24,000 nt of DNA, taken from positions 1,959 to 25,958 of the forward strand of contig JALVSO010000027.1 in NCBI GenBank assembly GCA_027024305.1. Direction: 5' to 3'. The notes beneath the pieces were generated by a model that worked only from the letters and a program-made list of their open reading frames with translations, made no database searches and was not told the DNA's origin. The translations under genes and the position numbers were made by a program. Origin of the DNA: Candidatus Parcubacteria bacterium (lineage in GTDB: Bacteria > Patescibacteriota > Minisyncoccia > Phycocordibacterales > GCA-2747955). Below, piece by piece: positions 8,851-24,000 of this stretch. Numbering within the stretch: position 1 is the stretch's first letter; each line of letters opens with the position of its first letter.

Positions 8851-8856
8851 GTTTTA

Positions 8857-9724: not shown

Positions 9725-9748
9725 ATGATTTTGTGTTACAATTCCCCT

Positions 9749-10129: not shown

Positions 10130-10141
10130 CGATTTTTTTTT
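10102..10141 (+). terminator. intrinsic terminator overlapping the 3' end of the toxin gene
   Basis: ATCGTTAAA-gaattat-TTTAACGAT stem flanked by A8 and T9 runs. Confidence 0.65.
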
Positions 10142-10498
10142 GAAACTTTCTCCCCCTGTAAAATAGGGGGCGAGACCTAAGCCAACTATATTGGTAGTAT
10201 ATTATAAAGAAAAAAGAAAGTCAAATTTTTTAAAGCTTTATTGTTTATATTAAAATTTAATCTGTTAATAAGTTATAAGTCGCAAGTGATAATCACCTCT
10301 ATAGTAATTAGATAGATAGTGGTTGCCTTGGTAAAAAGTGAGGTAATGAATTAGAGAAACAGTTTAAATCACCATTATTTTAGCTGAGAATACTGTTTTT
10401 TTTCTTAAAATAATGCAATAATTAAGTATTTTTATGACAAAAAAATAGCTGAAATGTGTTGAAAAATAAGGGTTTTCTAAAAATAGACACAAAAAAGC

Positions 10499-10527
10499 TT
10501 GACAAATAAATCAAAATAGTATATAAT
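10499..10527 (+). promoter_or_regulatory. consensus sigma70 promoter (TTGACA, 17 nt, TATAAT)
   Basis: TTGACA at 10499-10504 and TATAAT at 10522-10527, exactly 17 nt apart, inside a 900-bp AT-rich ORF-free region. Confidence 0.6.
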
Positions 10528-10533
10528 GCGGTC

Positions 10534-10700
10534 AGATTTTGAAAGATTGGGAAAAATTATGAAGGAGAGAGCATAATTTTTCTGAGAAAAGGAAAGGCTT
10601 TGAGAGACAAATCCAAAAATGGATTTATCTCACAAGGTCTTTGTTGACCGACCTCGGTCAGTGAAGAAAGCACTCTCTCCACGGGAGTGCTTTCTTTTTC
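10534..10700 (+). ncRNA. candidate ~165-nt small RNA (consensus promoter to intrinsic terminator)
   Basis: Bounded by the promoter above and the terminator GAAAGCACTC-9 nt-GAGTGCTTTC plus T5 (10666-10699). It contains a perfect 11-bp hairpin GAAAAATTATG-aaggagagag-CATAATTTTTC with an SD-like loop. No credible ORF. Family not recognised. Confidence 0.4.
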
Positions 10701-10736
10701 CCAGAAAAATTATACTTCGGAAATTTCTCAATCTTT

Positions 10737-10846
10737 CATCGGTCTTTAAATAACATATTAATTTATGTTCCATGTAGTCAGGTGGGTAGGTTAATACGGG
10801 TCTTGGAACAGGACTGCGGAACGCTCCACCCTTCGGTTCAACCGAT
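10737..10846 (+). ncRNA. possible ~110-nt structured element closed by CATCGGT/ACCGATG
   Basis: Long-range complementarity 10737-10743/10840-10846. Internal pairings include G-U wobbles (GTAGTC/GACTGC, GGTGG/CCACC). The only ORF here is an implausible minus-strand one (10630-10851). Confidence 0.25.
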
Positions 10847-10864
10847 GACAAGGGCTACAAACCG

Positions 10865-10933
10865 TTTTGTAAAGAAACGGCTGGAATTAAAAAGTCTAAC
10901 CAACTTTTTAATTCCGGAAATTTCTTTACAAAA
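10865..10933. repeat. long two-tier inverted repeat (69 nt hairpin)
   Basis: TTTTGTAAAGAAA..CTGGAATTAAAAAGT-ctaacca-ACTTTTTAATTCCGG..TTTCTTTACAAAA. That is 13 + 15 bp of pairing with one G-U. Confidence 0.6.
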
Positions 10934-10982
10934 TTTGTAAAGAAAAATTCGTTTCTTTGACAAAGGTTTTAAAAAATACTTC

Positions 10983-11012
10983 TTAACTGAAATATTTTTT
11001 AAACAATATAAT
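10983..11012 (+). promoter_or_regulatory. putative promoter at the AT-rich/GC-rich transition (TTAACT, 18 nt, TATAAT)
   Basis: TATAAT at 11007-11012 and TTAACT at 10983-10988. It would start transcription ~11020, reading into the structured region and the hammerhead. Confidence 0.4.
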
Positions 11013-11019
11013 GTCAAAA

Positions 11020-11563
11020 TTTGTTAAAGATCCCCGGAAAAGAAGCCGGACTTGTCAGGTATGGTTCGGCGTGTGGTTGCTGACAAGTCCGGCTTCGTGA
11101 AAACTCCGGTCAGATCTTTGGCGGATTTTTGGAAAAAATATGGATTGCTTCCCTCCACATCCGTTCCTCTCGCAATGACGACCACCGGAGGTGGTCGTTG
11201 GGACGGCGACCTGCGGTCGCCGTCATTACGAGGAGCTCGCGACGAAGTAATCCATGCAGACATTCGTCACCGTTATGTATTTTTCAAGATACCCGGTTTG
11301 TCGGCAATCACACGCCTAACCATACCCAACAAACCGGGTATCAATTTTTTCCAAAAATCCGCCCCAGGGTGGAAACAAAATGGAGGCGATGACACTGCCA
11401 TTTTTGAAGCTAAACAAAAGGTTTTAGATTCAAAAATGGCAGTGGGGCTCGTAGAGAGCGGGGCTACCCCGGCGAGGTAAACAAACTCGTCCTTGGTGAA
11501 ATTCCAAACATTGCCTTCAAATACAGAGAAGTTCAGCGTGGTTCGTTGAGCTTCTCTGCCGTC
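11020..11563 (+). ncRNA. candidate ~540-nt highly structured RNA ending at the hammerhead cleavage site
   Basis: No plausible ORF (the tracked ORFs here are Arg/Pro-rich shadows). Perfect 17-bp hairpin at 11042-11058/11080-11096. 19-bp long-range helix GGCGGATTTTTGGAAAAAA (11120-11138) / TTTTTTCCAAAAATCCGCC (11345-11363) enclosing hairpins at 11178-11198 and 11202-11224. 14-bp hairpin GATACCCGGTTTGT/ACAAACCGGGTATC. 16-bp hairpin CACTGCCATTTTTGAA/TTCAAAAATGGCAGTG. Confidence 0.45.
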
Positions 11564-11609
11564 CCGGAGTGTGCGCTCCGGCTGATGAGTCCAAAAGGAC
11601 GAAACGGTA
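11557..11609 (+). ncRNA. type III hammerhead self-cleaving ribozyme
   Basis: UGCCGUC|CCGGAG-ugugcg-CUCCGG-CUGAUGA-GUCC-aaaa-GGAC-GAAA-CGGUA. The full catalytic core is present (CUGAUGA, GAAA, GUC cleavage triplet). Stem I is 6 bp with a closed loop and stem II is 4 bp with G10.1-C11.1. Stem III is open and 6 bp (ACGGUA/UGCCGU, one G-U). Predicted cleavage is between 11563 and 11564. Confidence 0.85.
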
Positions 11610-11810
11610 AAATTGTCACGGTATGACTGCGGGATAACGAGGAAGCGACGCGGAATGACGCTGAAAAGTCCACCCTGACAAAAATAACGAAGTCCGACTT
11701 CGTTGCCTGTTCCGAAGCGAGATTTTAGCGATAAATTCTTGTCGCTAAAATCTCGCTCTTCGGAGCGAAAAGGTTCCGGCGTGTATTCGCCGGGTAAATT
11801 TAACTGAAAA

Positions 11811-11881
11811 TCACCGAGGCAAATATCCCCTATAAGCTGAAGATTATCCTTCAGTGAAATGGGGAGAATAAGCCGAGGTGA
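11811..11881 (+). promoter_or_regulatory. three-tier stem-loop in the 5' UTR immediately upstream of the RBS of the next gene
   Basis: TCACC..GGC / GCC..GGTGA, TCCCC/GGGGA and CTGAAG-attatc-CTTCAG are nested. It ends 6-14 nt before the AGGAGAG RBS and ATG 11895, and it covers the alternative ATG at 11859. Confidence 0.4.
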
Positions 11882-11894
11882 TCAGGAGAGAAAG

Positions 11895-12272
11895 ATGGCC
11901 AAGGTCATCCGTATCTCCCGCCACCCGCTGGGTGGTGATCGGGAGGCGGCTCTCAAGGCCGCCTTCGGCGATGACGTGGAAATCGTCACCGTCGATGTTC
12001 CCTATGGGGACGACCCCGTTGCCACCGTCGGTCAGCTGATTGACCGGGAAGGGGATGTCGTGGCCGTTGAGGCCCAGGCGCCCTTTCCGGTGACCATGAA
12101 GCTGGTCGACGCGAACCGGAAGCTGGGTGTTAAGTTCGTCCGCGCCGAATTCAAGCGCGGTGCGGATGGACGGGCTGTTGTCGTTGGTCAAGACGACAAT
12201 GGTCGCGACATCCTGGCTTTCGATCGCTACGTGGAGTTGCGTCGTATCGTTATTGATACGGCGGAGCTCTAA
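11895..12272 (+). CDS. hypothetical protein (125 aa)
   Basis: ATG 11895 is preceded by CAGGAGAG. The tracked ORF starts at 11859, but that ATG lies inside the stem-loop without an RBS. Protein-like composition (MAKVIRISRHPLGGDREAALKAAFGDDVEIVTVDVPYGDDP...). TAA stop. Family not recognised. Confidence 0.65.
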   Translation: MAKVIRISRHPLGGDREAALKAAFGDDVEIVTVDVPYGDDPVATVGQLIDREGDVVAVEAQAPFPVTMKLVDANRKLGVKFVRAEFKRGADGRAVVVGQDDNGRDILAFDRYVELRRIVIDTAEL

Positions 12273-13430
12273 CGGGCGACCGGCCGGGTGGCGGCGGTAC
12301 CGGCAACGTCAAGCCGGGCGTGCAGCTATGCGCGGTGGTAACGGTGAGCAACGGCTCATCATTCCGAAAGCCGATAATGGCAAATAGTGGGGATTCCGCT
12401 CCCCTTGTAGCGGGATTGACTGGAGGAGGATAATCCGATGGACAATTAGTAGCGCCGAGTCCTGGCGCCATAACAGAAATGAGGACAGCCAAAAGTGAGT
12501 GGTTTCACTTTTGGTGACCCCGGGAGGAGGGCGGCTCCTCTCAGTCGTGCACTATGCACGCAACCGTCCGAGGCGGTTCCTCGGCATGGCCTTAGGGAGG
12601 ACCTATGGCTATTTAAAAAGGCGCCTGGAGACAGGGGCGCCCGATAAATACCACTCCCTCGGGGGCAGGACGAGTTCCGGGAGAAGGGGTGAGAAGTTGC
12701 TAGCCCCGGGATATGAGACCTGCCATCATATTCCGAAATCGAAGCAACTATTGGTTGACTCCCGAGCGTGGTTTGTTCGGGGGCTTTATTGAGTCGGTAA
12801 TTTTAGATTATCGGCTCATAGAGCAAGAGGGGGGGTTGCCTTTCTCCTCCCATTCAGTTTCAAGAAGTACGGATAACTTCTTGAACCTCCGGGTCGTGCT
12901 CGGAGTTTGAATAAAAATCGGTCGGCAAAGGATTGCCGACCGGTTAGAATGACTCGGAGAAGCTTAGTTGGTCGGGCTTCTCTTAAAAAAAGTTACCATG
13001 GGGCTTAATGGCTCCATGGTAACCGGACCAACCCTCCACATTGGAGGAAAATAGGGTGTTGTTTCCTTCACCCTCCCAATTCTGAGAGTCAAGGACTACT
13101 CTCAGGATCTTCGCAAGGCGGAGTTTGGGAAAGTTTTCCATAAAAGGAATTTATGGAAGACAAAGGAAACTCGGGCCCTTATAACCGGAGGGCCTTAAAG
13201 GTAGCCCCCGCCTTGGTTAGGCGGGGGTTAGGTTGCTCCCCCGAGATGGATTTCGGGGGCTTTATTGGGCAGATCTGTTTTACAGGTCTGTCCATAGAGA
13301 ATTGAACAAACTCTTTCACCTGACTTTCTCTTCTGCAAAGAAAGTCATTGAAGGGTGGAAGGGGTTAAATTTTAATAGGGCTCAGGCCCCTCCGCCGCGC
13401 TTTTTTCATGGGCGCGGAGCAGACGGAGCA
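12273..13430 (+). ncRNA. ~1.15-kb ORF-free, hairpin-dense region (candidate large structured RNA or array of small RNAs)
   Basis: At least 9 perfect 7-10-bp hairpins: 12489-12514, 12860-12884, 12919-12942, 12992-13023, 13082-13105, 13205-13227, 13238-13259, ~13321-13347. Two are terminator-like units ending ...TTCGGGGGCTTTATTG (12758-12795, 13238-13269). The tracked ORFs here have non-protein-like composition. Strand is assumed from the neighbouring genes. Confidence 0.4.
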
Positions 13431-13447
13431 CCTTAAGGAGGTGAAAC

Positions 13448-13687
13448 ATGAATGAAGACAAAAAAAAAGAGGTGGAGTGGGTCTTGGCCAACTTCACCAA
13501 GGAGGAGGTCCTCGGGGAAATCGAGGATCTGGAAAGGCGAATCCCACTTGAGTGGGAGGACGCTAATGATGCATATTCCGAGCCCTGTGCGGGCGCGGAA
13601 TCGAACTATTATTCAATAGTTCGAGGAATCGACGAAATGGAGGAGCGCCTGGAAGCGTTCCGGGAAGCATATAGGCTCCTCCAGTAG
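13448..13687 (+). CDS. small acidic hypothetical protein (79 aa)
   Basis: Strong RBS AAGGAGGTGA 7 nt upstream of the ATG. TAG stop, followed by an intrinsic terminator. Confidence 0.65.
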   Translation: MNEDKKKEVEWVLANFTKEEVLGEIEDLERRIPLEWEDANDAYSEPCAGAESNYYSIVRGIDEMEERLEAFREAYRLLQ

Positions 13688-13708
13688 ATTTAGATTCCTG
13701 TGCACATT

Positions 13709-13757
13709 TCCCGAGCGGTGGTGTTGTAGTGACATTACCCGCTCGGGACTTTTTTTG
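13709..13757 (+). terminator. intrinsic terminator, CCGAGCGG-hairpin family copy 1
   Basis: TCCCGAGCGG...CCGCTCGGGA 10-bp stem with an inner GTA/TAC helix, followed by CTTTTTTT. It is near-identical to 18115-18160. Confidence 0.8.
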
Positions 13758-13782
13758 AAAATTCAAAAATTTGAATTTTCAA
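13755..13782. promoter_or_regulatory. perfect 13-bp inverted repeat TTGAAAATTCAAA-aa-TTTGAATTTTCAA (operator-like)
   Basis: Exact palindrome read directly. It lies between the terminator and the module-end repeat. Confidence 0.4.
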
Positions 13783-13802
13783 AGAAGGGATTTCCGGGGA
13801 AC

Positions 13803-13875
13803 AAATCTTTTGCAACGTTTTTGAACGTCCCAGGGACGTACCGGAATTTGGATTTGAATCTGCCTAGAGTTTTTT
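13803..13875 (+). repeat. module-end repeat, copy A1 (short version)
   Basis: AAATCTT...TGAACGTCCCAGGGACGTACCGGAATTTGGATTTGAATCTGCCTAGAGTTTTTT. It shares the ACGTCCCAGGGACGT palindrome and the GATTTGAATCTGCYTAGAG+T-run tail with 22168-22320 and 23826-23978. GC content drops immediately after it. Confidence 0.75.
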
Positions 13876-13896
13876 AGAAATTTAAAAAAGAAAATT

Positions 13897-14088
13897 ATGA
13901 AAGAAATTATATTTATAACATCCATCATTTCAGGTCTCCTGATATTTTTTATCTTTATTTTCTCTTTGGATTTGGATGCCGGAATTATGGCTATTTTGGC
14001 AGCCTTTTTTGGTTCGGCCTATAACCGGTTATATCTTTTTCTAAATCATTTATTTAGAGAAAAACATCCGGAGAAAAGTGAGTTTTAA
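13897..14088 (+). CDS. possible small two-TM membrane protein (63 aa) in an AT-rich patch
   Basis: Intact ORF with hydrophobic segments (IIFITSIISGLLIFFIFIF, IMAILAAFFG). Weak RBS. Its AT-rich composition is unlike the flanking GC-rich blocks. Confidence 0.4.
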   Translation: MKEIIFITSIISGLLIFFIFIFSLDLDAGIMAILAAFFGSAYNRLYLFLNHLFREKHPEKSEF

Positions 14089-14126
14089 AATGTCTTTTGA
14101 AATGAAAACAGCTAGTCTTGCATTTT

Positions 14127-14174
14127 CCGAGCGGTATTTTGTTGACAAAACTTTGCCGACAAAATACCGCTCGG
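14127..14174. repeat. 16-bp perfect hairpin of the CCGAGCGG family (no T-run)
   Basis: CCGAGCGGTATTTTGT-16 nt-ACAAAATACCGCTCGG. Its outer arms are the same as the two terminators at 13709 and 18115. Confidence 0.6.
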
Positions 14175-14345
14175 GAGAGTGGTGAATTGGCTTTTGCAGA
14201 GCCCATCTTTAGTCTGAAAGCATAGCTGCAAAGAATATGCTTTCTGGGTGATCCGCGACCAACAAGACTGCGGGGAGTGCTAGGTTCTGAACTTCCAACA
14301 ATAGGAAGGAATGAAGCGCTCAAGCTCAAAATTCGGAGGTGAATA

Positions 14346-15458
14346 ATGAGCAAAAAAAACATTGCGGAGCTGGCTCCGCAAAAAAATGTGGCGGAAAAGA
14401 TTTCTCAGGCTCTGTCTGAGAATTTTATCCGCTCCGAGAGAGTTGCCCGTATTCTCGCCCTTGCGGTGGAATCGGGCAAAAATGTATTACTTTGGGGGCC
14501 GGGCGGACACGGCAAGTCCGAGATGGTGGAGCTTGCGCTCGCGCAAGTCGCCGACTCGGACGACGTGTTCGTCCAATCCTTTGGCGAGGGCATGGATGAG
14601 GCAACCCTTTGGGGTGGCCTTGATTTCCAGGCCCTCGAGTCGGAAAAGGTGCTTCGGTATTTTCCGGAGCAAAGCTTCCTTGCGAAGCCTTTTGCCGTCT
14701 TTGAGGAGATCTTTGACGCCCCGGCGTCGGTTCTCCTCGCCCTGAAGGATACCCTGACGGCGCGCAAGCTCCGCAAGGGTGGTCAACAATTTCCTATGGA
14801 AACCAAAGTGATCATCGCGATCACCAACAAGGATCCGGAGGAAATTTCTGACCTCGGCCCCGCCGCAGCTGCTCTGGTGGAGCGGTTCCCGCTCCAGCTC
14901 AATGTAGATTGGGACTCCTATGAGGCCCGGGACTACACCGAGCTGTTTGATAAGGTCGGATCTCGGCTCCCGGGGGCGGATCTCAACGGCACCCAGCGGG
15001 TGCTGGCGGAGATTATCGCCAAGGCTTCGGCCGATGGCGATATTATTTCACCCCGCACCGCGGTTCACGCCCTCGGCGTGGTCAAGACCGCGGCGGCCCT
15101 GCGAGGCTCAGACCGGGTGGAGAAGGAGGACCTGGTGGACCTCCAGTACCTGCCCGGCATGGAGGACCTGGCGGATAATATCCGTCAGGAGTTGGACGCC
15201 GCCTACGAGCGGGCCGAGGCAGAGCGCCGGCTGGTTGCGGCCGAGGATCGGTTGCGTGAACTGTTGGCGGAGCTCCACGACGCAACGACGCCAATCAAGG
15301 CACTCCAAGTTGCTCGCCGCCTGCAGTCTCTGCAGGACGACACCAGCAACCTGAAAGTGCCGGACGGTCTCACCGACCGGCGCAAAAACCTGCGCAACTC
15401 TATCAGCGAGAAGGTGCAAGCGGCGCAGGAGCTTGCCCTTCAAAACACCCGCATCTAG
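14346..15458 (+). CDS. MoxR/CobS-like AAA+ ATPase (370 aa)
   Basis: RBS GGAGGTGA. Walker A LLWGPGGHGKSE, Walker B-like AVFEEIFDA, and sensor-like IIAITNKD and ISPRTAV. C-terminal coiled-coil-like tail. TAG stop. Confidence 0.8.
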   Translation: MSKKNIAELAPQKNVAEKISQALSENFIRSERVARILALAVESGKNVLLWGPGGHGKSEMVELALAQVADSDDVFVQSFGEGMDEATLWGGLDFQALESEKVLRYFPEQSFLAKPFAVFEEIFDAPASVLLALKDTLTARKLRKGGQQFPMETKVIIAITNKDPEEISDLGPAAAALVERFPLQLNVDWDSYEARDYTELFDKVGSRLPGADLNGTQRVLAEIIAKASADGDIISPRTAVHALGVVKTAAALRGSDRVEKEDLVDLQYLPGMEDLADNIRQELDAAYERAEAERRLVAAEDRLRELLAELHDATTPIKALQVARRLQSLQDDTSNLKVPDGLTDRRKNLRNSISEKVQAAQELALQNTRI

Positions 15459-15473
15459 CGGGAGGAGGAAAAA

Positions 15474-16850
15474 ATGAACTTTACGTTCAGAACAACTCCT
15501 CCCGCTACCTATATCCCTCCGAACTCGGAGGAGATGCGGGAGGTCGCGGCTAAGGTCGGGCTGAAGGGATTCAGCCGCGACCTGGTCGCGGACCTGTGTA
15601 ACCTGGCGGCGGGGGGAGCAATCCAACCCCCGTCGGCGTATCGGGAAATCGTACACCGGCAGGTGGAGGAAAAGCTCCCTGCCCCCGATAGCGATGGCGA
15701 GTGGTCGGTTGGAGGTGGCTACACCAAAGACCGTCTGCAAGCTATCAATCACCGCCTGGAAAAAGCGATGAGATACCATCAGAATGTCTGCGATTTCTTG
15801 CAGACGGTGGACCTCAGCGCCTTTCCCGGCCGAAGCCCCCTTGAGCAGGCCATGAGCTTGCTCAAGCTGCTTTCCAAGCAGGAGGGTGGCTCCGGCGGCG
15901 GTGAGGGGGGCGAGCCCCTGCCCATCTTCCAGGACAATGATCGTCCGGAAGGTGTCGCCGAAAAACTCCATGAGACCATGGAGTTGGCGGAGTCGCTGGA
16001 CGAGACCGAGCAGGAGATGCTCGATCCGGATGGTGACTGGCAGGAGGATGCCGAGCAGGATGGACAGGAAACCGGCTCCTCGGGGCTTCAAGCCCTGAAG
16101 GTTGCCGAGGACCTGGTCGACGGGAGTGACAAGCGCGCCATGCTTGAGATTTCCCGTCAGCTTGACCAGTTTACCAAGCTGCAAGTGCGGCGACAAAAAC
16201 TGGTCAAGCCAGATCCTACCGGCGACGAAATCCGAACCCGGGGCATCAAGCATCTTGGAGAACTCGGCAGAGTCTCCAAAAGTGCTTGGGCCACCCGCCA
16301 ACAACAGCCGACGTACTTTTTGTACCAGGCTGTGACCGGTCAGCTCCCCGTTCGGGAGCGGGTGACCCGCCAGGAGAAGAAACAGGCGATCTTCATCCTG
16401 GTTGACGGCTCCGGGTCTATGGAGGGCCGCAAACACCACAAGGCCACGGGGGTGGTGATGAACCGCCTCAAGGCAGTGGTGGACGGCGACGCGGAGGTTT
16501 GGGTTTCGGTCTTTGACACCGAAATGTCCAATCCAATGCATGCCGGAAATGCGGAGGAGGCCCGGGAACTGATCAAACAGTTCCGTCATGGCAACTTCCG
16601 CGGCGGCGGCACCGACATCGCCAGCGCGGTGAAAGCCGCGCACGCCTTCATTGAGGAAAAGATGAAGGCGGGCGAGGCGCTTTGGAGACCGGAAGTGGTA
16701 GTCCTCACTGATGAGGACAGCTCCACGCAAGGTCTCCGCAAGTCTGAGGTCAAGGGCACTCGTGTCCACGGATTTGCAATCGAGCGCAAAAACAAGCCGC
16801 TGGTGACTTTTGCCAAGTCAACCGGCGGCGTGGGGATTGAAAACTTTTAG
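15474..16850 (+). CDS. von Willebrand factor A (vWA/MIDAS) domain protein (458 aa)
   Basis: RBS GGAGGAGG. It starts 15 nt after the AAA+ gene. C-terminal vWA domain with the MIDAS motif ILVDGSGSM plus GGGTDI and VVVLTDED. Acidic linker. TAG stop. Confidence 0.8.
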   Translation: MNFTFRTTPPATYIPPNSEEMREVAAKVGLKGFSRDLVADLCNLAAGGAIQPPSAYREIVHRQVEEKLPAPDSDGEWSVGGGYTKDRLQAINHRLEKAMRYHQNVCDFLQTVDLSAFPGRSPLEQAMSLLKLLSKQEGGSGGGEGGEPLPIFQDNDRPEGVAEKLHETMELAESLDETEQEMLDPDGDWQEDAEQDGQETGSSGLQALKVAEDLVDGSDKRAMLEISRQLDQFTKLQVRRQKLVKPDPTGDEIRTRGIKHLGELGRVSKSAWATRQQQPTYFLYQAVTGQLPVRERVTRQEKKQAIFILVDGSGSMEGRKHHKATGVVMNRLKAVVDGDAEVWVSVFDTEMSNPMHAGNAEEARELIKQFRHGNFRGGGTDIASAVKAAHAFIEEKMKAGEALWRPEVVVLTDEDSSTQGLRKSEVKGTRVHGFAIERKNKPLVTFAKSTGGVGIENF

Positions 16851-16874
16851 TTGAATATCCTCTGGTTATTTTCT

Positions 16875-16920
16875 GTGAAACTTGGCTTGGTGTGGTGCCA
16901 AGTCAAGTTTCACTTCTTTA
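16875..16920 (+). terminator. probable terminator after the vWA gene
   Basis: GTGAAACTTGGCTTGG-tgtggtg-CCAAGTCAAGTTTCAC (16 bp, one G-U) followed by the U-rich TTCTTTAT. Confidence 0.55.
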
Positions 16921-16970
16921 TCAAGCATCCAAAATGGTTTGGGTGCTTGTAGAGAAAAGGAGGTGAAAAA

Positions 16971-17012
16971 ATGAAAAATCGGGATCCTCCGATGATGCCC
17001 GAACTCGGCTAG
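16971..17012 (+). CDS. possible 13-codon micro-ORF (MKNRDPPMMPELG) with a very strong RBS
   Basis: AAGGAGGTGA lies 6 nt upstream of the ATG and the ORF ends in TAG. It sits at the start of a 0.7-kb non-coding region. It could be a leader peptide or coincidental. Confidence 0.25.
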   Translation: MKNRDPPMMPELG

Positions 17013-17564
17013 GGCTAAAACACTCTGAGGCCGACGGTTGGGCCGAGACACCGTTGGGGCGATGTTCCTGCCGATGGAGCCCGTTTCAGTATATTTCAAG
17101 ACCGGAGAGCTGCTGACTCTTTGATGGCTTGGGATATGGTAAAGCTGAATGGCCGGGTGATGCCGGTAAAACAAACATCAACACGAAGCAATGGTTAGAG
17201 AACATCCAGCCAAGTGTATTGCCCGTGCAAAAAACGGGTGTATAAAAATCTCAACTCCGGTTTTCCCGGGGCGGCATGGTGTCGTAGATACGCAATGCGG
17301 CACTTAACCTCTTACTAACGGAGGATGGTTATGCGTATAAGGGACCCCCCTTAGGTTTTGGTCATTTTCATTCTAATAATTATTGGAGTGGAAATGACCT
17401 TGGATAGAGGAAGTGCTTGGTAGTGCTTCCTCTCTACTTTTGGGAATATAACTTTTAGGAGTTGTATTTCCAAGGAGTGGATTTTTCTCTTTTAGTGAAG
17501 CGGGATAGAGAGCCTGAAGTTTTTTGGGTTTTGTCTTCCGTTTCACTAATTTAGGGAGGGTAGT

Positions 17565-18107
17565 ATGGAATTTTTTTCTAAGGATGGAGGTGTTGTTGTT
17601 GTGCCGTGGGGCACACAGCAACACCTCCGCGCTCACCCGGACGTCTTGGATGTCCTGGGTGAGGCAATTTCAAAAATTGAACTCCCCACGGATGGGGAGT
17701 TTCTGAAAACGACCGTTGATCTGGGAAGGGTTATCGGTCGTTCCGGGGCGGTGGAGACCGACCCGATTCAATACGACGAGCAGACCTGGTTTGCCCATCG
17801 TATTGGGCGGGACGGACCTTCACGTGTTGTTTTGGACACGGAAGGTCCGGAGGTTTCCACCGTTGCGATCCTGGCGTTCCAAGCCAGGGATCGCAGCACC
17901 GGGAAAATCCAGCCGGGCAAGTACATCCTTGCTACGGCATGGATCGGCTCGGCGGAGGCCGAGCGAGAGCCCTGGGACAAGGGCATAAAAACAGAGCGGG
18001 AGCGCCAAGCCGCACTGCGGTATTGGTGCTCCCATGCTCTGGTCTATGACAAGGAGGTCATGGACAAGCCCTTCCAATCTTCATGGAAGGAGATTTTGGA
18101 AGGGTGA
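17565..18107 (+). CDS. hypothetical protein (180 aa)
   Basis: RBS GGGAGGG. Globular-looking composition. Apparent TGA stop followed by an intrinsic terminator. Family not recognised; the N-terminal HLRAHPD is only a weak hint of a nuclease-type His motif. Confidence 0.65.
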   Translation: MEFFSKDGGVVVVPWGTQQHLRAHPDVLDVLGEAISKIELPTDGEFLKTTVDLGRVIGRSGAVETDPIQYDEQTWFAHRIGRDGPSRVVLDTEGPEVSTVAILAFQARDRSTGKIQPGKYILATAWIGSAEAEREPWDKGIKTERERQAALRYWCSHALVYDKEVMDKPFQSSWKEILEG

Positions 18108-18114
18108 ATCTTTT

Positions 18115-18160
18115 TCCCGAGCGGTGGTGTTGTGGTGACATCACACGCTCGGGACTTTTA
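18115..18160 (+). terminator. intrinsic terminator, CCGAGCGG-hairpin family copy 2
   Basis: TCCCGAGCGG...CGCTCGGGA followed by CTTTTATT. The inner helix GTG/CAC covaries with GTA/TAC in copy 1. Confidence 0.75.
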
Positions 18161-18206
18161 TTGTGCCGGTAACTTTCCAAGTTACGGGCACATAGAAGTT
18201 TTTCAT

Positions 18207-18324
18207 TTTTTTTCACGGACTCCCTTGTCCGTTCAATTGTGCCGGTGATGAACCGGAAGTCCTACGGGGCGCGAACAGACAAGGGGCTTGCCGAAAGGTG
18301 AGTGTTCTGTTCGTGGAGAGAGAA
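18207..18324 (+). promoter_or_regulatory. structured 5' leader, copy 1 of 2
   Basis: ~95% identical to 19042-19159. It contains ACGGAC-tccctt-GTCCGT, CCGG-tgatgaa-CCGG, and GAACAGA...[CUUGCC-GAAA-GGUGAG]...UCUGUUC, then the GGAGAGAG RBS. Confidence 0.6.
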
Positions 18325-19041
18325 ATGAAGGCGTTGGAAAAAATCAACATCGCCGCGCCGTTTGTTTTCGCTGCAGTGGAGTCGATTACCCTGATAGAGC
18401 CCTCTATTTGGAGGGCGAATGCCGACATCCGTTTTTATATGGATATCTGGTATTCGATTTGGGTGGTCAGTGTTGGGATGCAATACGCTCCGAAATGGGC
18501 GATTGCATTTCTTACATGGTCTCTATTGCCACCGCTCCTCGGTGTGTACGAGGGGGCGAGGTACGAAAACGCATCCGATGCATTTTTGCGCCTTGATGCG
18601 TTGATTTGCGTAGGGTTTTTGCTCTACGAAATAGCAATCATAGAGGTTGCCCATCACCACTTTGAAAAAGTTTTTGGATGGCTCCTGCCGTCCAAATATG
18701 AGGTGGTGGAGCGCATCGGTGTATCATGGATGATCCGGTGTTACAAGGAGTTGTATCGCCAAATGGCGCGATGGTGGAAGGTTGGAGGAAATCATGGATT
18801 GATGATTCTTTGCGCCTTAAGTTTTGCCAAATTCTTTGGTAACTCGGGACAAAAAAGAGGGAATTTGCTTCTCCACGAGATTGAGACCAGTGAAGTCTCA
18901 GTTCGTATCGCCGACAATGGAGATATAGTTTTGTCGGCAAGCAAGCGGACCCTAGACGTCGCAACCATTGCGATACGAAAGGCGGAGGAAGGCGGATTAA
19001 GCGCCGCCGTTGAATTCCTCCATTCGCACGCGGAAGTTTGA
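18325..19041 (+). CDS. hypothetical membrane protein (238 aa)
   Basis: ATG 18325 follows the GGAGAGAG RBS; the tracked start at 18298 lies inside the repeated leader. Several hydrophobic, Trp-rich segments. Apparent TGA stop at 19039-19041. Confidence 0.65.
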   Translation: MKALEKINIAAPFVFAAVESITLIEPSIWRANADIRFYMDIWYSIWVVSVGMQYAPKWAIAFLTWSLLPPLLGVYEGARYENASDAFLRLDALICVGFLLYEIAIIEVAHHHFEKVFGWLLPSKYEVVERIGVSWMIRCYKELYRQMARWWKVGGNHGLMILCALSFAKFFGNSGQKRGNLLLHEIETSEVSVRIADNGDIVLSASKRTLDVATIAIRKAEEGGLSAAVEFLHSHAEV

Positions 19042-19159
19042 TTTTTTTCACGGACTCCCTTGTCCGTTCAGCTTTGCTGGTGATGAGCCGGAAGTCCTGC
19101 GGGGCGCGAACAGACAAGGGGCTTGCCGAAAGGTGAGTGTTCTGTTCGTGGAGAGAGAA
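19042..19159 (+). promoter_or_regulatory. structured 5' leader, copy 2 of 2
   Basis: It starts immediately after the preceding stop codon. About 6 substitutions relative to copy 1, including CCGG>CTGG, which keeps pairing as G-U. Confidence 0.6.
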
Positions 19160-22100
19160 ATGAGCAACAAAAAGTTGCCGGTCGCGGAGTTCCGCGAGCA
19201 AATCGTTTCAACCGTTGCCTCTAATCCGGTAACGGTCATTACAGCTGAGACCGGCGCGGGCAAGTCCACGCAGGTGCCTCAGTACCTGCTGGACGAGGGT
19301 TACAACATCGTTGTGACCCAACCCCGGCGGTTGGCTGCTCGGACTGTTGCCGAGCGCGTGGCCGAGGAATACGGTTGCGAGTTTGGCGATATCGTTGGCT
19401 TCCGCACCGCCCATGACCGCCAGGACAGCGACAACACCCGTTGTCTTTTTGTCACGGATGGTCTGGCGCTGGTGCGTGAGCTTATGGGTGCCGGCACCCA
19501 CGACTGCCTGATTCTTGATGAGGTTCACGAGTGGAACCTCAATATTGAGGTACTCGTGGCGTGGGTGAAGAAGCAGGTCGCCCGGAATCCCAAATTCAAA
19601 GTGGTGCTGATGAGTGCCACTTTGGAGGCGGAGAAGTTGGCGAGCTTCTTTGGCGGTGCGCCCATCATTGAGGTGCCGGGACGTACCTTCCCCGTGGAGG
19701 AGCGCAAAGTCGGTGAAAGCCTGCACGACGACATTGTTGAGCTTGCTCGGCAGGGTCGAAATGTGCTGGTTTTCCAGCCCGGCAAGGCAGAAATTGAGGA
19801 AACCGTCAGGTACCTTGAAAATCTGCCGGACCTGGACGCCAGGGTTTTGCCGCTTCACGGTGGCTTGACCAAGGAGCAGCAGGCGGCGTGCTTCAAAAAC
19901 TATCACCAACCGAAGATTGTCGTCAGCACCAATGTCGCGCAGACATCGGTGACCATTGATGACATTATTGCGGTTGTTGATTCCGGGATGGAGCGCCGGG
20001 TGGAGCTGGTGGACGGGGTTGAGGGCTTGTACCTGCGCCCCATTTCACTGGCCGATGCCAAGCAGCGCCGGGGGCGTGCCGGCAGGACCAAGCCGGGGAT
20101 TTATATCGATCACTGCCCGGCCAAGCCGGAAGATCGGCGTGAGTTCCCGATGGCGGAAATCCTGCGGGTGCGCCTGGACCAAACCGTTCTCCGTTTGGCT
20201 ATGGCTGGCTTTGATATGGAGGAGCTTCGGTTCTTCCATCAGCCCAATATTGCTGAAATCCATGAGGCCAAGCGTGCTCTGCATGCTCTGGGTTGCATGG
20301 ATGAGAACGGGAAGGTTACGGAGGTTGGTCGCGCTGTTTCCCGTTTGCCGGTCTCCGTTCAGTATGGGCGGATGATTGTGGAAGCGGAGAAGCTCGGGGT
20401 TGTGGGCGATGTTATCAAGATCGCCGCAATTCTGGAGCAGGACGGCATCACCGCCCGCAAGGTCAAATTGGATGACCGCTGGGTGGAGGCTAAGCCTCTG
20501 TGGCTGCCGCTGACCAACGGGGAGAAGGAGTCGGACGCTCTGGCTCAGCTCAATGTGTATGAAAATGCACAGAGCATGAGCAAGTCCCAGATGTATGAGT
20601 CTGGGGTCTTCGTGAAGGACTTTTATTTCGCGAAGGAGCGAGTTCGCCTCCTGAAAAAAGCGCTGGAAAGGAGGGTTCGTCATATGGACTCAACCGGAAA
20701 GCGCGAGGACATTCTCCGGGCGGTTCTTGCCGGGATGGTGGATCACTTGTATAAGTATAATTACGGTGATTACCAAAACGGCGATGGGGTCAACCGCCGG
20801 ATCAACAAGGATTCCGTTGTATCTGGTGGCGACTGGATTGTCGGTAAACCCTTTGACCTGGAAATCAACGGTCGTTACGGACCGTTCACCATTAATTTGG
20901 TGACCATGGTCACAAAGGCGGACCCGATGATTCTGGCGGAAGTGGCACCCCAGCTGGTGACCATTGAAGCCGGTCTTTCTCCGCGATACAGTGTCGATCG
21001 AGGGTGTGTGGTATCTACCACAAAAACGCTCTTCAACGGCATGGTTATCAAGGAGGAGGAGGTTGATGACATCAACCATCCCGAAGCGTCGGCCATCCTG
21101 GATGAGCAGGCATGGAAGGAGTGGAAAGGTCCGGAGATTCTGGTTCCCGATTTCAGTTTGGCGGGTGAACTGCCGGCTGAAATTCCGGAAATCCGCGAGG
21201 AGGTCTATATCAAGTCGCGGGTGGATGGTCGTCCACTTTCTGCCTATGGGGTCGTTTATCATGACTCCTGGTCTGGTTGGAAAAGTAAGTGGACGCGGGA
21301 CCGGAAGGAGGCCGAAAGTCTCCACGAGCAAGCCGAGAAGAAGCTTGCCGAACTCCGGAAACAAAAAGCCGTCCGCGACTGTATTGAGCGCGAGCTTGAT
21401 GCGGTCAACCGTCGCCGGGAGGCGATCGGTTTGTCTCCGATTAAAATGCGGGATTCCGGTTTTTCTCACAACGGTTGGTCGCGAGACTATACCGAGGAGA
21501 AGTGGGAGAAGGTATTGCAGGAGACGGCGGATAAGGAAGCCGAGGCGGCTGCTGAGCGGGCCCGGGCCGAGAAGGAAGCCAAGGAGGCACGCCTCATTGA
21601 GGAAGGTGCCTTTACCGGTTTCACCGGGGTCTGGTGCCGTCGTAGTGGCTCCAACCAGGGTGATGGCTGGGTCATTCGTCCGGGCGGTTCTTTTCGGGAG
21701 CACGACTCCATTGATAACCCTCGTCCGCGTTACAAGAGTGAAGGGTATAAGTCGTGGAATGTTGTGCGCCCGGATGAACTGGCCATTTCCTGGCGGAAGC
21801 ATACCCGGGCCTCCGAACACGAGTTCGAAGTTGCTCATCTGCCGGAGTCTTTGACTGCCGAGCAGGTGAAGGCGATGGAGACTCTGCTGGAAGAACTGGA
21901 GGAGGCTTGGGACGGCGCCACCGGCCTGGCTTCGGGCAAGAAGAGCCCGAGCGTTGGTGAGGGTTGGGTTAACCCTGAGACGGGCGAAAGTCTGACCAAG
22001 GGGTTCCGGACCTCTCGTCAAAAGCGGGAGGGTTCCGAGGCTAGCTGGACCGGAAAGGCCGGAGGGGTTGAAGAGGAGACCAACTCCGTTGTTTATGAGA

Positions 22101-22162
22101 CGGGAGAGGTTGATTTCAATAATCCCTTCGCCGCTCTGGCCGCCCTGAAGGGGAAACTCTGA
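19160..22162 (+). CDS. DEAH/RHA-family (HrpA/HrpB/DHX-like) helicase with a long uncharacterised C-terminal extension (1000 aa)
   Basis: ATG 19160 follows the GGAGAGAG RBS; the tracked start at 19010 runs through the leader repeat. Motifs: TAETGAGKST, ILDEVHE, SAT, TNVAQTSVTIDD, QRRGRAGR. These are followed by HA2/ratchet-like and OB-like regions (WIVGKPFD...MVTKADPMILAEVAP). About 380 aa follow with a Lys/Glu/Ala coiled-coil and no family I recognise. Apparent TGA stop. Confidence 0.85.
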   Translation: MSNKKLPVAEFREQIVSTVASNPVTVITAETGAGKSTQVPQYLLDEGYNIVVTQPRRLAARTVAERVAEEYGCEFGDIVGFRTAHDRQDSDNTRCLFVTDGLALVRELMGAGTHDCLILDEVHEWNLNIEVLVAWVKKQVARNPKFKVVLMSATLEAEKLASFFGGAPIIEVPGRTFPVEERKVGESLHDDIVELARQGRNVLVFQPGKAEIEETVRYLENLPDLDARVLPLHGGLTKEQQAACFKNYHQPKIVVSTNVAQTSVTIDDIIAVVDSGMERRVELVDGVEGLYLRPISLADAKQRRGRAGRTKPGIYIDHCPAKPEDRREFPMAEILRVRLDQTVLRLAMAGFDMEELRFFHQPNIAEIHEAKRALHALGCMDENGKVTEVGRAVSRLPVSVQYGRMIVEAEKLGVVGDVIKIAAILEQDGITARKVKLDDRWVEAKPLWLPLTNGEKESDALAQLNVYENAQSMSKSQMYESGVFVKDFYFAKERVRLLKKALERRVRHMDSTGKREDILRAVLAGMVDHLYKYNYGDYQNGDGVNRRINKDSVVSGGDWIVGKPFDLEINGRYGPFTINLVTMVTKADPMILAEVAPQLVTIEAGLSPRYSVDRGCVVSTTKTLFNGMVIKEEEVDDINHPEASAILDEQAWKEWKGPEILVPDFSLAGELPAEIPEIREEVYIKSRVDGRPLSAYGVVYHDSWSGWKSKWTRDRKEAESLHEQAEKKLAELRKQKAVRDCIERELDAVNRRREAIGLSPIKMRDSGFSHNGWSRDYTEEKWEKVLQETADKEAEAAAERARAEKEAKEARLIEEGAFTGFTGVWCRRSGSNQGDGWVIRPGGSFREHDSIDNPRPRYKSEGYKSWNVVRPDELAISWRKHTRASEHEFEVAHLPESLTAEQVKAMETLLEELEEAWDGATGLASGKKSPSVGEGWVNPETGESLTKGFRTSRQKREGSEASWTGKAGGVEEETNSVVYETGEVDFNNPFAALAALKGKL

Positions 22163-22167
22163 GGGGT

Positions 22168-22320
22168 GGATTTGGGAGGAGGTGTTGGTTACACCTTCCT
22201 CCCTCCGGCTGTCATTTCTGGCAGCCGGGCTTTATAGCGGGTTTAAATCTTCTGAACGTCCCAGGGACGTACCGAACCCAGGGACGTACCGGATTTGAAT
22301 CTGCTTAGAGTTTTTTTGGA
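22168..22320 (+). repeat. module-end repeat, copy A2 (153 bp)
   Basis: It differs from 23826-23978 at only 2 positions. Layout: hairpin GGGAGGAGGTGT-tggtt-ACACCTTCCTCCC, hairpin CCGGCTG..CAGCCGG, then ACGTCCCAGGGACGT with a tandem duplication of CCCAGGGACGTACCG, then GATTTGAATCTGCTTAGAG plus T7. Confidence 0.85.
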
Positions 22321-22531
22321 AGATTTTAGGGAATAATTTTATAAGAATTTTAAAAGTAAATTAGTATTTCCCTCTTTGTATTTTTAGGAATATAAAGAGG
22401 GGGTTGTTAATACCCTCGTGCGTCTTAGCCGTTTAGGCTGTGCTCGACGCACAGCCCATGCAGAGGCATGGGTTAATTATGTGCCTGCGGGGATAGCCTT
22501 CATGGCTTGAAACGCGGGTGGAGGTCCTGAA

Positions 22532-23371
22532 ATGGACAAAAAAAACAAGGCGGCGACTGCCTCTAAAGTCGCAAAAAATCTGGTATTTTTTCTTGGTGGT
22601 GCCGACGCAGAGATGCGTCGCATCGCCGAGGTGCTGGCAGAGGCCGGCATTGAATACCATGACGCCGGCCTGGGCTGGGGCGCTGCCGCCTCGGCCTACG
22701 GTGACGCCATCGCCGAGGCCTCCGGCGCCGGCAAGACGCCGGTGCTGGTGGAGTTGGAGGTCGACTGCGACCTGCCCGAGGGGGTGGTCGTGGTTGACCA
22801 CCATGGAGATCGTGCCGGCGAGCCGCCGGCCATTCTGCAGGTTCTCAACCTGCTCGGCAGGGAGCCGAGTCGGTGGGACCTGCTGGTGGCGGCCAACGAT
22901 GCCGGGTGGTTTCCCGGTCTCGTTGGTGAGGCGGAGATCCCCGGTATGGGGCGTTTCTCCCCGCCGGCGACGGCGGAAGAGATGGCGGCGGTTCGTGCCA
23001 CTGACCGGGCCGCTCAGGGCATTACGCCTGAGCAGGAGCGGGAGGCGGAGCGGGCGCTGGCTGCCCTCGTTGAGGAGATTGGCGGCGTTCGGGTCATCCG
23101 GATGAGCCACTCCAAGACGGCACCGATTGGCGACCGCCTCGCCATTGATGCCCTCGCCTCCGGCCGGCCCATCCCGGCCTACCTCGTCCTCTCCGGGGAC
23201 GGGGAGGTGAACTTCTCGGGTGACGGTGCACTGGCCGCCGCCCTTCATGAGAAGTTCCCGGGTGGCTGGGCCGGCGGTGCCGGCCTCGGCAAGGTTGGGG
23301 GAAGCGCCTTTTGGGGCGGCTACCCCGACCACGAGGAGGCCCTCGCGTTCATTCGCGAGTATACCTCCTAA
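22532..23371 (+). CDS. hypothetical protein, weakly DHH-phosphoesterase-like (279 aa)
   Basis: RBS GGTGGAGG. It contains VVVDHHGD and a Gly-rich C-terminal segment (GGWAGGAGLGKVGGS). The assignment rests on short motifs only. TAA stop. Confidence 0.6.
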   Translation: MDKKNKAATASKVAKNLVFFLGGADAEMRRIAEVLAEAGIEYHDAGLGWGAAASAYGDAIAEASGAGKTPVLVELEVDCDLPEGVVVVDHHGDRAGEPPAILQVLNLLGREPSRWDLLVAANDAGWFPGLVGEAEIPGMGRFSPPATAEEMAAVRATDRAAQGITPEQEREAERALAALVEEIGGVRVIRMSHSKTAPIGDRLAIDALASGRPIPAYLVLSGDGEVNFSGDGALAAALHEKFPGGWAGGAGLGKVGGSAFWGGYPDHEEALAFIREYTS

Positions 23372-23604
23372 TCGAACTTCGCCACCGAGAGTGAAGTGAA
23401 ATAAAGTGCTCGGCCCGGTGCCTGCGTGGTGCAGGCGCCGGGAGGTTTGAGGCAAGCTTGGTTAAGTTTGCCTTTCTTATTCCGATTGCAAGGGTGTTTC
23501 TTTGCGGTCGGATAGGAAATTAGTCGCCGGGCTTTGTTGAGAGGTTCGGCAAAAATCAACTTTGCGGTGAGGGTAAAGACCCAACAATCCGCGGGAGACC
23601 AGCC

Positions 23605-23826
23605 ATGGCAGAAATATGCCATAATATAAAATGGGCACTAATCTGCCCATGGTCCTACGTCGTCATCCACCCGAACGGATACACCGTTCTGGTGGACAGG
23701 TACGAATGGAATCGTTTGGCAGAGGCCAAGGAAAGGGCCTATGAAGAGAACCAAAAAACCGATGCATATCTGCATCGGGTGTATGGGCCGTTTTGGCGCC
23801 CATATATTGATTCCAAAATATGTTAG
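23605..23826 (+). CDS. small Trp/Tyr-rich hypothetical protein (73 aa)
   Basis: Intact ORF with a GGGAGA RBS-like sequence. TAG stop, followed directly by repeat copy A3. Confidence 0.5.
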   Translation: MAEICHNIKWALICPWSYVVIHPNGYTVLVDRYEWNRLAEAKERAYEENQKTDAYLHRVYGPFWRPYIDSKIC

Positions 23827-23978
23827 GATTTGGGAGGGGGTGTTAGTTACACCTTCCTCCCTCCGGCTGTCATTTCTGGCAGCCGGGCTTTATAGCGGGT
23901 TTAAATCTTCTGAACGTCCCAGGGACGTACCGAACCCAGGGACGTACCGGATTTGAATCTGCTTAGAGTTTTTTTGGA
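23826..23978 (+). repeat. module-end repeat, copy A3 (153 bp)
   Basis: Near-identical to 22168-22320. AT-rich sequence resumes after the T-run. Confidence 0.85.
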
Positions 23979-24000
23979 GTTTTTAGAAAAACTTTTCTTG

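Follow-up and report, generated by a model that had tools for sequence, protein, structure and literature searches.

This study concerns a 24,000-nt stretch of DNA from a Candidatus Parcubacteria bacterium (contig JALVSO010000027.1), in the following referred to as the window, and a cluster of six genes at its positions 14346-23371. All coordinates are positions in the window, which counts as locus W, and the related loci that we fetched carry L-numbers. A preliminary description had listed six co-oriented open reading frames (ORFs) in this cluster: a MoxR-like AAA+ ATPase, a von Willebrand factor A (vWA) protein with a metal ion-dependent adhesion site (MIDAS), two proteins without assignment, a DEAH helicase and a DHH-like protein. 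All six are present on the plus strand at the coordinates given there, and the domain calls are borne out, by Pfam for MoxR, vWA/MIDAS and DEAH, and by PADLOC and solved NrN structures for DHH.

14346-15458, plus strand: MoxR-type AAA+ ATPase (Pfam bpMoxR 50.9 bits, cut-off 27; AAA_5 35.3 bits, cut-off 22)
15474-16850, plus strand: vWA/MIDAS protein (Pfam VWA_CoxE, VWA_2 and VWA, all above cut-off)
17565-18107, plus strand: p180 (phrog_23674 at 3e-21)
18298-19041, plus strand, likely start ATG 18325: ORFan membrane gene p247/p238, with several hydrophobic stretches
19010-22162, plus strand, likely start ATG 19160: DEAH helicase ORF, a HrpA/Prp43-like core with a C-terminal extension of ~400 aa
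22532-23371, plus strand: DHH gene, an NrN-family phosphodiesterase homologue (PADLOC C3a116 2e-54, DHH_CorA 1.5e-32)

The two proteins without assignment can now be described further: p180 belongs to phrog_23674, and the 247-aa protein is an ORFan whose hydrophobic stretches look like several membrane helices.

Gene neighbourhoods, cargo slot and composition

A scan with the MoxR alignment, with one genome per species, returned 35 loci, of which 33 show the vWA gene and two are cut by a contig end. Most of them come from the candidate phyla radiation (CPR), namely from Saccharibacteria and Kaiser-, Levyi-, Doudna-, Uhr- and Magasanikbacteria, together with a few metagenome-assembled genomes (MAGs) that are binned elsewhere. 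Neighbouring genes were called by tBLASTn of all window proteins and by ORF clustering. MoxR and vWA are direct neighbours at all loci except those that a contig end truncates, and also in four closer relatives; the pair was rightly described as a module. p180 accompanies the pair in 24 of the 26 clustered MoxR loci, mostly directly upstream of MoxR and at times after vWA. The third partner that is conserved with MoxR-vWA is p180 and not the helicase.

The remaining genes do not travel with this module. None of the 35 genomic loci, and none of the four closer relatives, whose vWA proteins are 87-89% identical, carries a homologue of DEAH or DHH at a distance of up to 10 kb from MoxR. Likewise, MoxR, vWA or DHH was found at none of seven distinct helicase loci, and MoxR or vWA at none of 47 metagenomic DHH loci. 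The check on co-localisation that the preliminary description had called for thus came out negative at all three kinds of loci, and its suggestion of a single, linked, RNA-centred system is largely refuted by these neighbourhood counts. Based on the same counts, we consider the AAA+/vWA/DEAH trio to be peculiar to this window, and MoxR-vWA-p180 to be the conserved unit.

The surroundings of the module recur as well, and involve two of the genes on the low-GC side of the window (GC, guanine plus cytosine), where the following genes lie:

3-2033: pheT, with five in-frame TGAs and TAA as terminal stop
4095-5858: Pif1-like gene, a host gene that is intact only if TGA is sense
5968-8850, plus strand: BIG, ~930-960 aa if TGA is sense; 5 in-frame TGA codons; GC 0.39
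8891-9652, minus strand: TrmB-family helix-turn-helix regulator (Pfam TrmB 2e-12); GC 0.36; divergent from the cargo

The recurrent order is BIG, a protein of ~900 aa, on the plus strand, TrmB on the minus strand, a gap of 0.5-2.5 kb, and p180-MoxR-vWA, and the arrangement BIG-TrmB(-)-gap-MoxR-vWA is found in at least 14 loci. A TrmB homologue lies 0.5-2.5 kb upstream of MoxR and divergent from it in 17 loci, and holds the same place relative to DHH in L055 and L058, while a BIG homologue takes the same position in nine MoxR loci as well as in L055, L058 and L100. The slot behind BIG-TrmB can hold other cargo: it is occupied by DHH alone in L055 and L058, and by the helicase in L100, with TrmB ~2.8 kb upstream and two small ORFs between. 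Furthermore, a YebC-RuvC-7TM_transglut-ATP-grasp block directly follows vWA in L047 and the helicase in L007. Since housekeeping genes (ychF-rpsF-ssb-rpsR-efp, ftsK) are found further out, the slot is chromosomal.

Within the window, the change from host to cargo is marked by a step in composition, from a GC of 0.31-0.42 in the left half (1 to ~11000) to 0.46-0.62 from ~11000 on; for the GC-rich island as a whole, GC is 0.55 as compared to 0.36 for the host. At third codon positions (GC3), the conserved island genes reach 62-77%, the small ORFan genes 31-55% and the host genes 34-48%. The same contrast is seen in other genomes. The cargo families show a GC excess (MoxR +10.8, vWA +8.7, p180 +8.9, DEAH +8.4 and DHH +8.3 points), the flanking families are negative (TrmB -5.7, BIG -6.5), and in every CPR locus, MoxR, vWA and p180 lie 8-25 GC points above TrmB, BIG and housekeeping genes. 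The 47 metagenomic DHH homologues are GC-enriched, too.

The two sides also differ in genetic code. The left-half host genes are PheT, a Pif1/RecD-like helicase, BIG, which has a C-terminal GNAT match below the Pfam cut-off, and the TrmB regulator; for four left-half genes (all but TrmB), an intact frame requires TGA to be sense, and every in-frame stop there is a TGA. This TGA-as-sense stretch on the host side spans 1-10130. The conserved N-terminal motif of PheT, which reads 'SYN*L' here, hints at TGA encoding Trp, with Gly (code 25) as the alternative; the BIG alignment is uninformative on this choice. The island genes contain no internal TGA and use it only as a stop: p180, the ORFan membrane gene and the helicase each terminate in TGA, and the p180 reading frame would continue for 245 codons past its TGA if this were read as sense. 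The island thus stands out from its flanks in GC, GC3, codon usage and the meaning of a stop codon.

Its right end can be placed with L009, an independent scaffold whose DHH gene is identical to that of the window and which represents the same DNA as the island. There, GC falls to 0.34 after a 321-aa ORF, low-GC genes (NTP transferase, MscS) resume, and the GC-rich block ends ~1.2 kb beyond the end of the window. Together with the GC step on the left, this gives an island of ~14 kb, from ~11000 to ~25150.

Finally, the module and its flanks have diverged independently. Across 91 locus pairs, pairwise identities of MoxR and vWA correlate (Spearman rho 0.76), and those of MoxR and TrmB (0.00) or vWA and TrmB (-0.06) do not. 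Between the window and L012, for example, MoxR is 84% and TrmB 37% identical, and between the Doudnabacteria loci L034 and L036, the values are 51% for MoxR and 65% for TrmB. As module divergence is uncoupled from flank divergence, we conclude that the module is exchanged horizontally. It is also found on two ~100-kb IMG/VR contigs (L001 and L002) with a GC of 0.61-0.63, on whose nature a PHROGs annotation was uninformative. In L048-L050 (about 5300-11300), the genes that come after MoxR-vWA encode DUF3800, an HNH endonuclease, DUF5673 and a large serine recombinase, an arrangement that looks like an integrative element; the recombinase occurs only in these three relatives. A megablast search of 11000-24000 against phage and plasmid collections gave no matches.

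The proteins of the cluster

The MoxR protein carries its Pfam domains above the gathering scores, a Walker A motif of the form GxxGxGK[ST] and an acidic Walker B motif; both the Walker A sequence GPGGHGKS (G51-P-G-G-H-G-K57-S58) and the E120-E121 pair are invariant among its homologues, which are 55-84% identical across CPR phyla. Its profile matches RavA, and tblastn against phages returned no match. In the vWA protein, the MIDAS residues D311, S313, S315, T380 and D413 are invariant in 35 homologues. Its AlphaFold2 (AF2) model has a pLDDT (predicted local distance difference test score) of 82.6 and is matched to vWA domains by Foldseek with a probability of 1.0; the structural neighbours, namely NorD of NorQD, the MIDAS domain of MDN1 and TFIIH p44, cover only the C-terminal vWA domain. 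Residues 1-290 are conserved and helical, and the structure search gave no neighbours for this N-terminal part. We also considered the protein as an analogue of Ro60/TROVE with its Y RNA and rejected this, given that it has no TROVE match and its N-terminal part no structural match.

MoxR, vWA and the helicase all score below the NCBIfam equivalog cut-offs for RavA, ViaA, CobT, HrpA and HrpB. Weak matches of the CobS/CobT type exist (phrog_249 and TIGR02442), TIGR02442 with 22 bits against a cut-off of 779, and the window has no CobN-like gene. More distant relatives of the pair have a different architecture: the Planctomycetota loci L037-L044 (Pirellulaceae and others) have two tandem MoxR genes, with vWA ~1 kb later.

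p180 belongs to a large, unannotated family, with 1384 clusters at 50% identity in phrog_23674. Its AF2 model (pLDDT 93.8) shows a mixed alpha/beta fold, for which we found no match in PDB or BFVD, and the sequence has no profile match to solved structures and none in Pfam. The invariant residues H20, H24, R55, R79, R82, R87, E135 and D138, together with the near-invariant H157, suggest a small enzyme or a metal- or ligand-binding protein. Among ten longer homologues there is a single fusion, to a HAD hydrolase, so that fusions are uninformative on its function. Homologues also occur in Rak2-like jumbo phages and in Otagovirus, beside an AAA gene and tRNA genes.

The helicase matches DEAD (PF00270), Helicase_C (PF00271) and HA2_N (PF04408) above the cut-offs and HA2_C weakly, and thus has the DEAD, Helicase_C and HA2 winged-helix/ratchet domains of the DEAH/RHA superfamily; no OB-fold (oligonucleotide/oligosaccharide-binding fold) match was obtained. 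Its closest solved relatives are Prp43, HrpA and DHX8 (E ~1e-71). It is not an orthologue of HrpA or HrpB by the respective models (TIGR01967, 316 against a cut-off of 723; TIGR01970, 285 against 546), and the last domain of its C-terminal extension also exists as separate proteins. More than 7000 homologues are ~60% identical over the core, mostly metagenome proteins; the few that are named are CPR proteins. Their neighbours differ from locus to locus, and none was found in viral contigs.

The DHH protein has no Pfam match. With the solved NrN structures 9lq9, 9lqa and 9lqc, it aligns over ~190 residues (phmmer E 1e-22), and the DHH motif is kept in this alignment ('vDHH'), which identifies it as an NrN homologue. 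NrN proper is the DHH phosphodiesterase of CorA-type type III-B CRISPR systems and degrades SAM-AMP, an adduct of S-adenosylmethionine and AMP (Chi et al. 2023, Nature, PMC10600005). Among nine ORFs from the cluster and upstream of it, a PADLOC scan detected neither Cas10 nor CorA, and 9600-24000 contains no CRISPR-like repeat array. Since the window lacks all three, a role in SAM-AMP turnover is a lead only.

For the ORFan p247, finally, no family was found in Pfam, PHROGs, PADLOC or NCBIfam, and no relative in 1.29 Mb of related loci.

RNA features, repeats and small genes

Apart from the six genes, the island and the gap before it contain the following features:

10499-10527, plus strand: sigma-70-type promoter, TTGACA-17-TATAAT, 12/12 positions matched
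to 10960, plus strand: structured transcript candidate, ~430 nt after the promoter; fold z -11.1
11556-11610, plus strand: type III hammerhead candidate (RF00008, 45.7 bits against a gathering score of 48.5, E 3e-7, full model length)
11859-12272, plus strand: p137, a small protein; GC3 68%
12273-13447, plus strand: hairpin array 1, non-coding, ~18 distinct perfect hairpins
13819-13843, 22250-22274 and 23908-23932: palindrome-bearing 25-nt unit (repeat D5) with the core ACGTCCCAGGGACGT
16851-17564, plus strand: hairpin array 2, a 714-nt non-coding spacer after vWA, ~8 distinct perfect hairpins; fold z -9.6
18207-18328, plus strand: duplicate leader (repeat D2), 122 nt, 95% identical to 19042-19163
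19042-19163, plus strand: structured 5' leader of the helicase, also present in conserved form before the L006 and L007 helicases
22168-22320, plus strand: intergenic cassette (repeat D1), 153 nt, a terminator hairpin and palindromes
23605-23826, plus strand: p73, a small ORF of no known function, within the island
beyond the window end: p321, a 321-aa protein of no known function, seen in L009 after the 73-aa ORF

The helicase has a leader of its own, with further copies at 9958-10066 in L006 and 951-1084 in L007. RNAalifold predicts a long-range helix in it, CCCTTGTC/GACAAGGG, in which three pairs show compensatory changes. The duplicated leader drives the ORFan gene that lies between the two copies, and this membrane gene, with the duplication around it, looks like a recent insertion. 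In general, the island genes are set apart by terminator-like hairpins and repeated cassettes. A second copy of the D1 cassette at 23826-23978 is 99% identical, the two copies precede DHH and the 321-aa ORF, and a 51-nt hairpin is found 3' of both p79 and p180. The perfect 15-nt palindrome ACGTCCCAGGGACGT occurs at 13825, 22256 and 23914, before p63/MoxR, DHH and p321; the first of the three D5 units immediately precedes the p63 ORF and lies ~0.5 kb before MoxR. No further copy turned up across the 1.29 Mb of related loci, except in L009, which is the same DNA. ACGTCCCAGGGACGT is thus a candidate operator, and its restriction to the island suggests a local co-regulation, in this island only.

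With regard to the RNA context, the preliminary description had pointed to a ribozyme and to large structured RNAs. The former stands as a candidate: the CUGAUGA...GAAA core of a hammerhead is visible near the left end of the island, at a score below the gathering threshold, with a minimum free energy fold that is not distinctive by itself (z -1.0), and at a distance of 2.7 kb from the six-gene cluster. A related type III hammerhead in L008 (15755-15809, minus strand) scores above the gathering threshold with 50.1 bits; together with a nearby tRNA-like element (14082-14131, minus strand), it lies in a stretch with few genes that separates a helicase homologue from a TrmB gene. The large structured RNAs, on the other hand, turned out to be arrays of perfect hairpins without an Rfam family. 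In the window, no Rfam family reached its gathering score and none besides the hammerhead was found, and at gathering scores, seven MoxR loci gave tRNAs only. We therefore dropped the possibility of a known large non-coding RNA (GOLLD, ROOL or OLE-like), as the Rfam scan returned no such match. Likewise, the candidate non-coding RNA at 10499-10960, which lies in the low-GC gap between TrmB and the island, has no Rfam match.

The stems of the arrays measure 9-18 bp, and hairpin density is far above that in the remaining window. The alignment of the 16851-17564 spacer to the close relatives L047/L048 (vWA 87-89% identical) stops at 16861, and the array at 12273-13447 is flanked by genes that the closest relatives lack. 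The spacer being devoid of Rfam matches and of conservation, we rejected a conserved RNA between vWA and p180 as a general feature. The arrays may be terminators, processing sites or stability elements, and none of our results supports them as substrates of the helicase or of DHH. In considering them as integron attC sites, we count against this that their hairpins are perfect and all different; no recombinase-type Pfam match was found among the larger ORFs of the window, where no attC or integrase search was made.

Other RNA-like elements were noted in passing. On the IMG/VR contigs, MoxR-vWA is followed by a tRNA-like element that matches the ends of the tmRNA model (L002, 12975-13050) and by a weak twister-P1-like match (L001, 12489-12572; 37 bits against a gathering score of 67). 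The host-side terminator hairpins at 4041-4069 and 9696-9724 share the core AAACACCGAGGTCTTGCCTCGGTGTTT, and a second type of terminator hairpin, GCGCGACC-loop-GGTCGCGC, occurs at 6006-6030, 8854-8894 and 11202-11224, the last copy inside the left edge of the GC-rich block.

Interpretation and comparison with known systems

The contrast in composition and genetic code, the conserved triad, the missing link between MoxR-vWA and DEAH or DHH, the alternative occupancy of the slot and the uncoupled divergence of module and flanks are direct observations. Given these, we regard it as probable that the cluster is not one system, but the central part of a ~14-kb foreign mosaic island at a recurrent cargo slot of CPR genomes. 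This island would be a mosaic of separately mobile transcription units, split by hairpin-rich terminator/promoter cassettes: the ternary module of MoxR AAA+, vWA-MIDAS protein and p180; the HrpA/Prp43-like DEAH helicase, a single gene behind a conserved structured leader of its own; the single-gene NrN-family DHH phosphodiesterase; and small accessory and ORFan genes (p137, p79, p63, p247, p73 and p321).

By analogy to NorQ/NorD, RavA/ViaA and CoxD/CoxE, a MoxR hexamer would spend ATP to pull on or remodel a client that is held at the MIDAS site of the vWA protein. p180 would be the best candidate for this client, or else for a specificity or effector subunit, and as such provides a concrete client candidate for a class of chaperones for which few substrates are known. 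The helicase and the NrN-like enzyme would most likely act alone, on their own RNA or nucleotide substrates. For the cargo taken together, the most likely role is in inter-genome conflict or in maintaining the element, and not in housekeeping. In this respect, the preliminary description was correct in ascribing a mobile-element or conflict flavour to the region.

Several observations weigh against such a mosaic. Loci were collected by means of short peptide patterns, which does not amount to a census. A DEAH helicase directly follows DHH in L082 and probably does so in L075 as well, and proteins with the C-terminal domain of the helicase are found near DHH in L051 and L052. As detected by jackhmmer, a p137-like domain is both fused to DHH and found beside MoxR-vWA-p180: in L052 (9920-11155), a single 411-aa ORF combines an NrN-like DHH domain with a C-terminal p137-like domain, and in L021, L026, L029 and L036, single or tandem p137-like domains accompany the triad. 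In addition, three transcription units of the island share its unique 15-nt palindrome. Considering the p137 domain, the adjacency of DHH and helicase and the shared palindrome, it may be too strong to call the modules 'fully independent', and for the same reasons we regard the original interpretation as partly supported rather than unsupported. Behind these cross-links, there may be either co-residence in shared hotspots or a loose guild of functions. As for mobility, neither the window nor L009 yielded an integrase, a recombinase, att repeats or any other mobility gene, with no dedicated integrase search made there, and L009 contains a run of Ns ~200 nt from its right junction. The conservation of MoxR-vWA at 55-84% and its frequency in CPR would also fit an important cellular function. 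Lastly, a role in conflict is something that we infer, since PADLOC has no model for MoxR, vWA or p180. The overlap with known defence systems, which the preliminary description had proposed to check, is accordingly small: PADLOC-DB 2.0 gave no match for MoxR, vWA, p180 or p247, weak generic or Cas3-type matches for the helicase, and only CRISPR-accessory models for DHH.

A bolder extension of the mosaic reading, which we consider rather doubtful, would be that CPR bacteria share a pool of GC-rich, standard-code cargo, consisting of the triad, the HrpA-like helicase, the NrN-like enzyme and p137-domain proteins, which moves across phyla into the TrmB/GNAT-flanked slot, even in a lineage with reassigned TGA. 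This pool might constitute an undescribed conflict toolkit of episymbionts, in which the NrN-like enzyme would destroy SAM-AMP-type signals in an anti-CRISPR-like manner, and MoxR-vWA would arm or disarm p180 as an effector with a new fold.

One alternative, which we judge unlikely, takes MoxR-vWA-p180 as a vertically inherited, essential chaperone operon of CPR bacteria, for instance for the assembly of a surface or ribosomal complex, with its GC content kept by selection and the helicase and DHH as ordinary neighbours. The very high protein conservation across CPR phyla, the fixed position next to BIG-TrmB and near ychF-rpsF-ssb-rpsR-efp, and the absence of mobility genes from most loci would all be expected from such an operon. 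However, vertical inheritance is difficult to reconcile with the uncorrelated divergence of module and flanks (rho 0.00), with a GC3 that is 25-35 points above that of host genes and with TGA stops in a host that reads TGA as sense; furthermore, the module is present on IMG/VR contigs as well as in MAGs that were assigned to unrelated phyla, and other genomes fill the slot with other cargo.

The system proposed by the preliminary description, in which the six genes, the hammerhead and the hairpin RNAs together serve RNA-centred defence, repair or processing, with MoxR-vWA remodelling a ribonucleoprotein, the DEAH helicase unwinding RNA, and DHH trimming ends or nanoRNA, appears quite improbable to us. 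The co-orientation of the genes, the RNA-type helicase, the nearby hammerhead and the action of NrN relatives on nucleotide conjugates agree with it, and so do the island-unique palindrome in the regions upstream of MoxR, DHH and p321, the p137-like domain that ties DHH to MoxR-vWA neighbourhoods, and the adjacency of DHH and DEAH helicase in L082 and L075. Yet the trio is never found together in the 35 + 4 MoxR, 7 helicase and 47 DHH loci, each gene has its own leader and terminator, the helicase leader is conserved with helicase-only loci, and the 714-nt spacer is unconserved even where vWA is 87-89% identical.

Finally, an assembly or binning chimera, in which a GC-rich fragment of another organism or a phage was joined to a low-GC, TGA-recoded genome, might come to mind in view of the abrupt GC step near 11000, the code mismatch between the halves and the run of Ns near the right junction in L009, but is very improbable, because the same TrmB(-)-gap-GC-rich-cargo synteny and GC contrast recur in at least 17 assemblies that different studies produced independently, the sequence runs without a break through the left junction within the window, and low-GC host-type genes resume on the right.

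CPR genomes are commonly portrayed as streamlined, with few mobile elements, and here they present a recurrent cargo slot, filled with genes of foreign composition that move independently of the flanks. Standard-code cargo with TGA stops in a TGA-recoded host is a natural test of how far differences in genetic code restrict or permit horizontal transfer. Likewise, an NrN-like gene outside a CRISPR locus hints at a use of signal-degrading enzymes beyond type III systems.

Among known systems, the triad recalls the MoxR-vWA ternary conflict systems (Kaur, Burroughs, Iyer and Aravind 2020, eLife, PMC7159879), with which it shares the adjacent pair with one conserved third protein, an ATPase with bpMoxR as its best Pfam match, and a mobile, patchy distribution. 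There, a VMAP, iSTAND, double-FtsH or beta-propeller protein makes up the third component (PMC7159879), whereas here it is the 180-aa, single-domain p180; moreover, the vWA protein has no fused effector or adaptor domains, and the hosts are CPR bacteria instead of multicellular lineages. Because the defining third components are absent, we regard the triad as a new variant rather than a member of these systems. With NorQ/NorD, RavA/ViaA, CoxD/CoxE and CobS/CobT, it shares the two-protein architecture, the vWA model resembling NorD and the MoxR profile RavA, but its scores are far below the equivalog cut-offs, and the NOR (nitric oxide reductase), CODH (carbon monoxide dehydrogenase), CobN and LdcI client genes are not nearby.

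The DHH protein has sequence homology, the DHH motif and PADLOC models in common with NrN of type III-B CRISPR systems (PMC10600005), but differs in its context, as it is a lone GC-rich cargo gene in a window without CorA, Cas10 or CRISPR array. The helicase shares the RecA1-RecA2-winged-helix-ratchet core with HrpA/HrpB and the Prp43/DHX helicases, and is set apart from HrpA/HrpB by its score (316 against 723 bits, the HrpA cut-off) and its distinct C-terminal extension of ~400 aa. The locus as a whole resembles the integration and defence hotspots of other bacteria, in which variable cargo lies between conserved core genes: it has conserved flanks (BIG-TrmB and, in some genomes, YebC-RuvC), alternative cargo and a foreign composition. 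It differs from them in that an integrase or att site was not found here, in that the same few GC-rich families recur across phyla, and in that one of the recipients uses a different genetic code.

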